Positions 16,298 to 19,537 of a stretch of DNA of 64,000 bases are shown piece by piece. Numbering within the stretch: position 1 is the first letter of the stretch; every line of letters starts with the position of its first letter. The notes below the pieces were generated by a model. It worked only from the letters and a program-made list of their open reading frames with translations, had not been told where the DNA came from and searched no databases. The DNA is taken from the IMG/VR virus record IMGVR_UViG_3300042731_003785. The stretch is one strand, 5' to 3'. This DNA is from a virus. Both the position numbers and the translations under genes were made by a program.

Positions 16298-19200
16298 GTG
16301 GAGGTCCCCGAAGGGACCTCCGTGTGTTGAAAGATGACCGCTCGAAGTGCATCTGCACCGTGGGCCGCGAGGTGGAGGTCCCCGAAGGGACCTCCGTGTG
16401 TTGAAAGCTCTATCCCCGGGACCGCACACGCTCGTGCTCGTTGTGGAGGTCCCCGAAGGGACCTCCGTGTGTTGAAAGCGGATAGGGCGGCTCGGTTCAG
16501 ACGACACAATAGAAGTGGAGGTCCCCGAAGGGACCTCCGTGTGTTGAAAGACGCCCAATGCCCTTTGGACGACGCGGCGTAGCTTGTGGAGGTCCCCGAA
16601 GGGACCTCCGTGTGTTGAAAGCGGACGTCCTGGCAGAGCGAATGCTCGATGCTCTCTGGTGGAGGTCCCCGAAGGGACCTCCGTGTGTTGAAAGTAACGG
16701 CCGTCGAGCGGCGAGAGAGACCTCGCTCTAGTGGAGGTCCCCGAAGGGACCTCCGTGTGTTGAAAGCGGTGGCGGCGCGATGTCCCGAATCTCCGGCTCA
16801 CCAGTGGAGGTCCCCGAAGGGACCTCCGTGTGTTGAAAGAGCCAAATCTCACAGAATCCGCTCCACGTCTGGAGGCCGAGGTGGAGGTCCCCGAAGGGAC
16901 CTCCGTGTGTTGAAAGTAACGGCCGTCGAGCGGCGAGAGAGACCTCGCTCTAGTGGAGGTCCCCGAAGGGACCTCCGTGTGTTGAAAGGAGCCCGAGATG
17001 GTCGAGGCACTGCGCGAGGATCCCCTGTGGAGGTCCCCGAAGGGACCCCCGTGTGTTGAAAGAAGAAGAACGGCACGTCAGCCGCGACGCATTGGTCCCT
17101 GTGGAGGTCCCCGAAGGGACCTCCGTGTGTTGAAAGAGCGCGCTGTCGCCGAGGTGGGCGTAGCGCTGCGTCAGTGGAGGTCCCCGAAGGGACCTCCGTG
17201 TGTTGAAAGCCGTCGCACTCGACCGAGCACATCCCGCCAACGCAGTGGAGGTCCCCGAAGGGACCTCCGTGTGTTGAAAGAAGCTCGTCCTGGGCTCACC
17301 CTGGATGTAGCTCGATGTGGAGGTCCCCGAAGGGACCTCCGTGTGTTGAAAGTTCGGGTTCTTCGCGATCGCATCAAGCGCTTCCCGGACGTGGAGGTCC
17401 CCGAAGGGACCTCCGTGTGTTGAAAGAGGTTGCTCGGGATCGTGAGGCTCCGCCTCGGTGGCGTGGAGGTCCCCGAAGGGACCTCCGTGTGTTGAAAGAT
17501 GTTTCTGCTCCTTGGTTTGATGCTTCCGCGGTAGGGGTGGAGGTCCCCGAAGGGACCTCCGTGTGTTGAAAGCCAACTGCCTGACGGTTCTTGAAGCGGA
17601 CCTCGATGCGTGGAGGTCCCCGAAGGGACCTCCGTGTGTTGAAAGGCGCAGCACCACACGGTCGGCAGCATCGTCGCTCGTCTGGGTGGGGGTTCCCCGT
17701 GTGTTGAAAGCACTTCCTCGCTGGGATCCACGCGCTGGCAGAAGACGGTGGAGGTCTCTTCGGGGATCTCCGTGTGTTGAAAGTCCTCGTCAGCGGGAGT
17801 GAACGTATGCAACCGCCTCGTGGAGGTCTCTTCGGGGACCTCCGTGTGTTGAAAGGGAGCCGCGAAGACCCCGCCGAGCATTGCCGCCCTCGTGGAGGTC
17901 TCTTCGGGGATCTCCGTGTGTTGAAAGATTGCTGAGTTCCATGGTCCGTTCTCCTGAGTTCGTTCGTGGATGTCTCTTCGGGGACCTCCGTGTGTTGAAA
18001 GTGGCTCGGCATGAGCGCGGCCGTTGCAGTTGCGACGGGTGGAGGTCCCTTCGGGGATCTCCGTGTGTTGAAAGCGGAGGAATCGCGCGGCTTCGTCCCG
18101 CGTCATCAGTGTGGAGAATGTTGAAAGAGCCCATCGGGGTCGTCTACTCCCGGTCCCTTGACGTGTGGAGGTCTCTTCGGGGACCTCCGTGTGTTGAAAG
18201 GAATCCTTCGGGGCGCGCAATCTGAGGGGCATTCGGGTGGAGGTCTCTTCTGGGACTCCGTGTGTTGAAAAATGGGCATCCAAGGCGGCATGGCGAGTCG
18301 ATTGCGTTGTGGAGGTCCCTTCGGGGATCTCCGTGTGTTGAAAGGGGACGAGGGGGACGCGGCTCGGGATCCCTGGTGCTGGTGGAGGTCTCTTCGGGGA
18401 CCTCCGTGTATTGAAAGTAGCGCTCTCGCAGCTCACAGACCCCCTGGCGCCGGTCGTGGAGGTCCCTTCGGGGACCTCCGTGTGTTGAAAGGGCTTGCTG
18501 ATCCCCAGCGCGACGTCTTCGCAGACTTGTGGAGGTCCCTTCTGGGATCTCCGTGTGTTGAAAGTCGAGATGGTCGGCCGGCATGGCGAGCGTCAGAAAG
18601 TGGAGGTTTCTTCGGGGACCTCTGTGTGTTGAAAAGAATGAAGCCTGCGGATGGACGCGCGGTACGTGTCGTGGAGATCCCTTCGGGGATCTCCGTGTGT
18701 TGAAAGCGCGCGTGGGTACGCCTCTGCTCCTTCAGCATGGCGTGTGGAGGTCTCTTCGGGGACCTCCGTATGTTGAAAGCGTCAGGCAGCGAGTCGCGTC
18801 ACGAAGAAGAGCAAGTAGGTGGAGGTCCCTTCGGGGATCTCCGTGTGTTGAAATGCCAGCACGGTTCCCAGAACGTGGGGATCTTGAGGTCTCCGCTTGT
18901 TGAAAGTCCGGCCACTAGATCTCGCGCGGCATGCCGTCTAGATCTCGCAAGAGGTCTCCGTTTGTTGAAATTAGACCGGCTGCTGTCCGCTCGGGAGCAG
19001 CTCTGCCGTGGAGATCTCGTAAGAGGTCTCTGTTTGTTGAAACGTTAGCGTGAGTCCAGTCGAGGTGGGGTGTCTCTGCCAGTGGAGATCTCGCGAGAGG
19101 TCTCCGGGTGTTGAAAGCAGGGCGGAGTGCCGGACGACTACATCGTGGTGGAGATCTCGCAAGAGGTTTCCGCTTGTTGAAAGGGCGTGGCGCTGCGAAC

Positions 19201-19537
19201 GCTAGGCTCGTGCGAGCTGCTGTGGAGATCTCGCGAGAGGTCTCCGTTTGTTGAAACGGAGAACTACGGGCAGTCCGACGAGCTGTGGAGATCTCGTAAG
19301 AGGTCTCCGTTTGTTGAAATGCCATTTGCTCGGCGGTGAGCAGCTCCTCCGGCTCCGTGGAGACTTCGCAAGAGGTCTCCGTTTGTTGAAAGGTGTAGAT
19401 GCAGATCTCCGTCGAGCGTCGCTTCGTGAAGCCTTCGTAAGAGGTCTCCGCTTGTTGAAAGTGTAGCGCAACGGGTAGCGCGTCCCGCGGATCATGACCC
19501 GGTGGAGATCTTGCTGGAGGTCTCCGTTTGTTGAAAA
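16298..19537 (+). CRISPR. CRISPR array, ~46 repeats and ~45 spacers, three repeat variants
   Basis: 36-nt repeats: GTGGAGGTCCCCGAAGGGACCTCCGTGTGTTGAAAG x19 (16298-17645); GTGGAGGTCYCTTCGGGGAYCTCCGTGTGTTGAAAG (17748-18854); GTGGAGATCTCGNRAGAGGTCTCCGTTTGTTGAAAN (~18936-19537); spacers mostly 35-41 nt. Confidence 0.98.

Follow-up and report, generated by a model that had tools for sequence, protein, structure and literature searches.

Three repeat blocks in the CRISPR array of a phage type I-C variant, probably age layers of one repeat lineage

The 64,000-nucleotide (nt) viral sequence IMGVR_UViG_3300042731_003785 from IMG/VR (the window, meaning the whole stretch of DNA analysed) carries a CRISPR array at positions 16298–19537, in which 46 repeats and 45 spacers were parsed, 44 of the spacers being distinct. 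The repeats form three successive blocks with different hairpin loops, and probably represent a single, slowly growing array, on the + strand, of a large phage's type I-C variant, the blocks being age layers of one repeat lineage. Read in this way, the array is an age-ordered record of repeat evolution, with a path from A-U through G-U to G-C pairs and a loop inversion, and one locus makes both repeat turnover and mismatch-protected spacer retention testable. The 36-nt repeat is numbered here from G1; positions 3–11 pair with 16–24, the loop lies at 12–15 and the 3' tail at 25–36. The leader and the parts of the array are as follows.

16104–16297, + strand: leader, with a CTCGCA motif at 16247–16252 (-51 from R1).
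16298–17645, + strand: block 1 (R1–R19), loop CGAA and a perfect 9-bp stem; putative youngest layer.
17686–17710, + strand: R20, 25 nt, with an 11-nt hairpin deletion, exactly at the block 1/2 border.
17748–18854, + strand: block 2 (R21–R36), loop TTCG, stem sites 10 and 20 forming a C/T mosaic.
18111–18127, + strand: R26, a 17-nt repeat that has lost its hairpin and kept the end of the 3' handle.
18875–18906, + strand: R37, a block-3-type repeat of 32 nt with a 4-nt deletion, exactly at the block 2/3 border.
18936–19537, + strand: block 3 beyond R37 (R38–R46, R46 being terminal), GNRA loops and the pairs A7-T20 and T10-A17; putative oldest layer.

The three loop classes (CGAA, TTCG and GNRA) had been noted in a preliminary description of this sequence and are real, occupying R1–R19, R21–R36 and R37–R46. 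Block 1 consists of 18 identical copies and R11, which has a single T22C change. The loop of block 2 is TTCT in R28 and R32, and those of block 3 are GCAA (three copies), GTAA (three), GCGA (two) and, in the terminal R46, GCTG. Deviation from the consensus of the repeat's own block rises from 1.5 per 1000 nt in block 1 to 44 in block 2 and 83 in block 3. Internal type I-C repeats differ on average by 4.12 per 1000 nt (PMC12839519), and those of blocks 2 and 3 are 10–20 times more variable than this mean; in ordinary control I-C arrays the repeats were identical (115/115 and 52/52). Several block 3 spacers are shortened to 27–33 nt. Spacers 37 (18907–18935) and 44 (19393–19425) hold repeat-like pieces, an 11-nt copy of the R38 start and a shrunken hairpin, which are perhaps slippage remnants.

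The border between blocks 1 and 2 is the simpler of the two. Reverse-complementing the hairpin of R31, in block 2, gives exactly that of block 1, and a single length-neutral template switch would turn repeats of the R22, R25 and R31 types into block 1, perfecting the stem. Classified by sites 10 and 20, these types make up 12 of the 14 intact block 2 copies; the R21 and R34 types are not convertible in one step. Template switching is documented as a cause of loop inversion in ribosomal RNA and microRNA; such inversion is rare for stable loops and was described without mention of CRISPR (PMC8794818). The inversion seen here resembles those cases in that a loop becomes its reverse complement in one event while the arms are kept or perfected, and differs in that 19 repeats descend from the inverted copy as their master. 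On the sequence evidence, one template-switch inversion is a sufficient explanation of the border and array fusion is not needed. It follows that the preliminary description's three repeat families do not stand, as block 1 is block 2 with its loop inverted in what appears to be one mutational event. R20 itself, to judge from its sequence, could derive from either block.

At the older border the evidence for continuity lies in the pair states. The pairs A7-T20 and T10-A17 of block 3 correspond to G7-C20 and C10-G17 in block 1, and the wobble states of block 2 lie between them. Both polymorphic sites of block 2 (10 and 20) carry block 3 alleles, which points to common descent of blocks 2 and 3. 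Methylation-driven C-to-T change at these two sites was considered and rejected: CCT is all that the sites have in common and both alleles agree with block 3, which makes ancestry the simpler explanation. Repair of G-T mismatches on an extruded DNA hairpin during spacer integration is another idea that could give a mosaic, but not the alternation described below.

The preliminary description offered discrete epochs or fused arrays, and the first of these, as age layers, is supported. Fusion would mean that recombination brought together arrays that had evolved apart in related phages, with the damaged border repeats as scars; it is unnecessary between blocks 1 and 2, most plausible between blocks 2 and 3, and on the whole unlikely. 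Both borders carry a deleted repeat, spacer 36, just before R37, is only 20 nt long, and the block 3 consensus differs at eight positions from that of either other block. Among the related phage loci introduced below, a double-hairpin repeat marks the change of hairpin type in L007, and the close relatives L007 and L014 (helicases 94.5% identical) nevertheless open with different hairpins. Set against this, block 1 requires one inversion only, the polymorphic sites of block 2 carry block 3 alleles, neither R20 nor R37 is a chimera of a new 5' and an old 3' part, the spacer GC fraction is alike in all three blocks (0.64–0.66), and the repeats of locus L062 change gradually from copy to copy. 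Repeat-pattern searches of IMG/VR, JGI metagenomes and GTDB genomes found no donor array.

The 9-bp stem coincides with the predicted fold, the intact repeats tested giving z-scores from -3.4 to -4.8. It was previously stated that all repeats keep this stem and the flanking motifs; this is overstated, as R20, R26, R28 (35 nt) and R37 carry deletions and the motifs are altered in R24, R30, R38 and R45, while 97% of stem cells do pair (34–68% in sliding controls). Three pairs are changed on both sides, and the shuffle test of the stem-covariation tool is, by its own warning, inflated by relatedness among the sequences. The non-Watson-Crick stem cells of blocks 2 and 3 comprise 28 G-U, which pair on the + strand only, one A-C and four mismatches. 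Counted as distinct sites there are nine G-U wobbles versus one A-C (P 0.02), in agreement with the earlier argument that the wobbles pair on the + strand and fix the orientation. The compensatory and wobble pairs from which selection had been argued are likewise present, but are a weaker sign of it than was assumed, because two-sided hairpin changes such as that in R34 can arise in one template-switch step (PMC8794818).

The distribution of changes along the repeat is more informative. Handle positions 28–35 show one change in 42 intact repeats, and the inner stem and loop of the same 42 repeats show 29 changes from block consensus. The best reading is that the handle is under selection and the top of the hairpin is free. 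Neutral decay, in which block 1 alone works and the G-U bias stems from strand-biased C-to-T change and template-switch repair of the palindrome, seems to us quite unlikely. It would account for a mean hairpin energy that weakens with age (-18.9, -14.4 and -13.6 kcal/mol in blocks 1, 2 and 3), for the shrinking block 3 spacers, for two-sided changes made by template switching without selection (PMC8794818) and for the lack of any target found for blocks 2 and 3. It fits poorly with a handle that is near invariant while loop and inner stem change, and with loops that are still GNRA in all non-terminal copies of block 3. In block 2, moreover, G-to-A changes fall at unpaired handle positions (R30, R33 and R35) and in the stem only once, where the change is compensated (R34), and relatives keep the handle across dozens of otherwise unrecognisable units.

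The + orientation of the array, as previously proposed, is borne out by agreement between operon direction, leader motif, wobble bias and the TT flank of the spacer 11 match. The CTCGCA motif of the leader recurs at -52 in L007, -53 in L014 and -61 in L062; a search of the leader gave no sigma-70-like promoter.

Upstream of the leader, on the same strand, lies the cas operon.

9216–9914, + strand: cas5c, divergent, candidate precursor CRISPR RNA (pre-crRNA) nuclease and handle binder (TIGR01876, E 2e-11, below the curated cut-off; PDB Cas5c matches to E 8e-9).
9869–11653, + strand: cas8c (PF09709, E 7.8e-34), start probably at 9911.
11761–12840, + strand: cas7c (TIGR02589, 185 bits, above cut-off).
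12895–15180, + strand: superfamily 2 (SF2) helicase of 761 amino acids (aa) in the place of Cas3, with Walker A at residue 28 and DEAH at 136 and without an N-terminal HD domain.
15177–15881, + strand: accessory open reading frame (ORF) of 234 aa, found after the helicase in every related locus that reaches that far.

Characterised Cas5c cuts at the stem base to leave an 11-nt handle, ignores the loop and the 5' overhang, and has cut a repeat lacking its first seven bases (PMC8524198). The window repeat has the matching geometry, with G25 at the stem base followed by an 11-nt 3' handle. The loop-blind Cas5c processor postulated earlier is supported, cas5c lying upstream; loop-blindness is expected here rather than new, because characterised Cas5c is already insensitive to the loop and the repeat geometry matches. 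Processing that depends on structure, the other half of that proposal, is doubtful for the lineage, since related arrays keep handle-only units without a hairpin. Canonical I-C repeats (Bacillus halodurans, Streptococcus mutans; PMC8524198) likewise start with GT and have a stem-loop, a stem-base G, an 11-nt 3' handle and a loop unread by the enzyme. They differ in being 32 nt long with a 7-bp stem and a pentaloop, against 36 nt, 9–10 bp and a tetraloop here, and canonical systems have the Cas3 HD nuclease that is missing from the window. In Cas5c a Trp stacks between the first two handle bases (PMC8524198), and in all four variant Cas5 proteins aligned a Gly takes the place of a Trp of PDB 8g9t. 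If the two sites correspond, loss of the Trp would fit the variation at repeat positions 26–27 in block 3.

Block 2 shows a further regularity. At the central site 20 the allele, T or C, changes at 12 of 13 steps (13 runs in 14 copies; P 0.004, or 0.011–0.012 with stricter handling), and the perfect runs shared by neighbours are shorter than in shuffled order (13.9 versus 18.6, P 0.0007). Alternation of this kind is not the product of leader-side serial copying, because that gives nested runs. A toy simulation in which units are lost between well-matched neighbours gave switch rates among the survivors of 0.68–0.71 at site 10 and 0.88–0.95 at site 20, the observed values being 0.69 and 0.92. 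Whether mismatched neighbours do resist repeat-to-repeat deletion, so that old units persist, is in our view evenly balanced. Repeat mutations have been linked to spacer retention, and in the same source, citing Fehrenbach et al. 2024, degenerate terminal repeats are held to protect trailer spacers (PMC12839519). The window array shares with that account the link between mutated repeats and retention at the old end; it departs from it in that more than half of the array is affected and not the last repeat alone, and in that variants recur in alternation. Block 2 would extend the published link, and the alternation itself appears undescribed.

Searches with the helicase returned further loci with the same gene order, the Cas7 proteins of which are only 26–40% identical to that of the window. 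Arrays in these loci include the following.

L007:13165–17990 (ENA ERZ28593591, 420-kb contig): array of about 113 units, mostly a 12-nt handle plus spacers of ~20 nt.
L062:13181–16100 (JGI 3300048997, 197-kb contig): array in which the repeats drift from copy to copy and lose the hairpin, with 54 or more handle units.
L002:1196–1461: mini-array between cas7 and the helicase, with three repeats and three different hairpins.

The L007 array begins with three full repeats, continues with other hairpins and then with units reduced to the 12-nt handle, its period falling from 72 nt to about 31–35 nt. Its 113 handles compare with 10 on the other strand, 4–5 in the flanks and 0–5 in shuffles, and its old units fold no better than shuffles, so that a hidden hairpin is absent. 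The double-hairpin repeat mentioned above (L007:13385–13441), a new hairpin followed by the remains of an older one, stands where the repeat type changes. L006 is the same locus, identical in a second assembly. In L062 there are 54 handles (0–8 in controls), and across L007 and L062 the unit length shrinks from 72–73 nt to about 31–46 nt. The strongest hairpins of the three long arrays are in the youngest repeats. From its sequence, the window array looks like an early stage of the L007/L062 gradient, with R26 nearly handle-only and the block 3 spacers shrinking. BLAST gave no credible phage match for the L007 and L062 arrays. A pattern search of IMG/VR for handle-only arrays returned unrelated tandem repeats only, and Cas7 and Cas5 profile scans of contigs gave ordinary I-C loci or nothing. 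The handle-only end state in two related phage loci appears undescribed, and CRISPR finders would probably not call the whole of an array such as that of L007.

The layered reading implies the following course of events. New units would be copied from the leader-side repeat, probably via host Cas1-Cas2, and a change in this master repeat would begin a new block. An earlier change would have replaced the GNRA loop and moved two A-U pairs toward G-C via G-U, and the latest would be the template-switch inversion from TTCG to CGAA, which left a perfect stem. Cas5c, if it behaves as its characterised relatives do, would cut after G25 and read the stem base and the 11-nt handle, so that changes at the hairpin top would be tolerated. 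Old units would persist partly since non-matching neighbours resist deletion, and would erode by small deletions with the handle kept; this is the weakest step. Handle-only units, as in the related phages, would be the end state. On this view the hairpin would be important above all when spacers are added, in the master repeat, and the handle would serve guide function; old units would presumably still be processed. Without a Cas3 nuclease, the complex most likely binds and silences rival mobile elements using the helicase, rather than shredding them.

A further proposal is put forward tentatively, as one we rather doubt: that the lineage makes working guides from repeats of 11–12 nt of handle, the hairpin serving mainly for spacer addition, that the old units are a deletion-proof archive of short guides, and that the complex acts through the non-Cas3 helicase and the methyltransferase-like protein. 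Should the relatives' handle-only units prove to be processed and loaded, they would be a minimal Cascade CRISPR RNA scaffold of about 31–35 nt per guide, and non-identical repeats that resist recombination would be useful for stable multiplex arrays. Phage immune memory would also be larger than repeat-based tools report, with standard CRISPR finders missing late-stage arrays. If these units are relics, they give a clear picture of array ageing, of modest interest.

Several observations weigh against the layered reading or parts of it. Direct passage from block 3 to block 2 would take 6–7 changes, or 3–4 after one template switch, and no intermediate copy is present. The site-20 test was devised after the pattern was seen, the toy simulation has free parameters, and neighbour dissimilarity is absent from block 3 (P 0.26) and from the L007 handles (P 0.6). 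At the positions of the Tyr/Lys/His triad the window Cas5 has F62, K139 and F140; the Cas5 of PDB 8g9t, which is named a pre-crRNA processing endonuclease, has L/K/F there. BLAST matched only one of the 44 distinct spacers, spacer 11 in block 1. Finally, cas1, cas2 and cas4 were not found in the window (tblastn, verified controls), although they may lie elsewhere in the phage genome.

The absence of these three genes from the window is one point for host tracking, in which each block would mark growth in a different host whose Cas1-Cas2 needed its own repeat; another is that some phages share repeats with hosts (PMC7162821). We regard host tracking as improbable. The comparison with host array repeats suggested in the preliminary description gave no match: the stem base and handle of blocks 1/2 turned up in no array among 185,579 prokaryote genomes (GTDB), which gave one chance single match. 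Nor does a host swap predict an exact loop inversion. In IMG/VR and JGI metagenomes, searches with exact and degenerate patterns of the repeat gave seven single chance matches and no related array.

The spacer BLAST, suggested as a block-by-block comparison, yielded one target, for block 1, and none for blocks 2 and 3.

17063–17100, + strand: spacer 11, whose match lies in a Gp37/Gp68 (DUF5131) gene carried by phages and plasmids and has TTG as its 5' flank.

Identity is 34/38 to NZ_CP011506.1 and 32/38 to PP232116.1. The protospacer adjacent motif of type I-C systems is TT-type, and the TTG flank is weakly in line with it; the matched gene would be a homolog of the target and not the true target. 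No self-targeting spacers were found within the window.

That the array is an assembly chimera of arrays from different strains is very improbable. The sequence is from a short-read metagenome, the order of block 1 rests on identical 36-nt repeats, spacer 6 (16695–16730) is identical to spacer 9 (16917–16952), both in that block, and Logan contigs break inside the array. Yet one Logan contig crosses the block 2/3 border at 100% identity (probably the same sample with another assembler), and the longest word shared across a border is 21 nt (1/2) or 10 nt (2/3), below usual final k-mers. The relatives show the same layering, one of them identically in two assemblies (L006 and L007). Less certain is how the units of block 1 are ordered, the duplicated spacer included.

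The assignment to type I-C follows from cas5c, cas8c and cas7c adjoining a repeat array with unique spacers, and of the three only Cas7 is above the NCBIfam cut-off. No Cas6 was present among the Pfam matches of called genes between 1761 and 30220. In the relatives, cas8 is divided into parts of about 440 and 160 aa. The window cas8c contains an in-frame ATG at 11171, with a ribosome-binding-like site, and the segment opened by this ATG (11171–11653) has the size and place of the separate gene of the relatives; by position and size, without a sequence match, it may start a Cas11-like subunit. The helicase gave no HD family match, and a control search for Cas3 in the window was empty. Its nearest solved relatives are the R subunit of type I restriction-modification systems, RadD and XPB, and not Cas3. 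The family has about 200 representatives at E <1e-10, the five best matches being in such cas operons where the context could be read.

The accessory ORF probably has an S-adenosylmethionine-dependent methyltransferase-like fold, judging from structure models, and this is a lead rather than an assignment. Its template modelling (TM) scores to rRNA methyltransferase models are 0.51–0.57. The best Foldseek match (E 1.6e-3) came from a model with a predicted local distance difference test (pLDDT) score of 58, and VIA Z was at most 6.6, with non-methyltransferases ranked top. The protein resembles viral hypothetical clusters in the ESM Atlas.

A huge-phage type I-C variant with a helicase for Cas3 has been published (Al-Shayeb et al. 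2020, PMC7162821), and comparison here rests on its description in the part of that source available. It is likewise phage-borne, its Cas5 is Cas5d-like with changed residues in the active site, it lacks Cas6, Cas1 and Cas2, and its helicase is not a Cas3; that part of the source mentions neither layered or handle-only arrays nor a methyltransferase-like ORF. The Cas12j partner described there was not seen in the window. Layered or mixed-repeat arrays, and a I-C variant with a methyltransferase, were searched for in the literature without result, and Al-Shayeb 2022 (Cell) or Nam 2012 may hold a prior description. The array is partly explained by known mechanisms, namely Cas5c specificity, template switching and old-end repeat decay. 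The architecture, with layered repeats across a phage lineage that end in handle-only units, appears to be new. Four other viral contigs of 89–346 kb (L010–L013) carry cas7c and I-C arrays of three to four repeats, and have no match to the window helicase.

The phage nature of the window is indicated by matches to a tail protein and a deoxynucleoside monophosphate kinase and by tRNAs, and by the location of relatives on contigs of 420 kb and 197 kb. An Rfam search of the window gave tRNAs only. Just upstream of cas5, on the - strand (8535–8937), are a tRNA-Trp and three tandem tRNA genes that were called as Ile and have the anticodon AAT, a rarity in bacteria. The CRISPR locus is flanked by genes for orotidine monophosphate decarboxylase (3959–4705) and a phosphoribosyltransferase, pyrE-like by eye (19651–20220), an instance of phage-borne pyrimidine synthesis. 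The region 41421–63560 encodes large proteins with internal repeats, laminin-G-like by eye, with weak TafC and tail tube matches; these are probably tail and receptor-binding genes.

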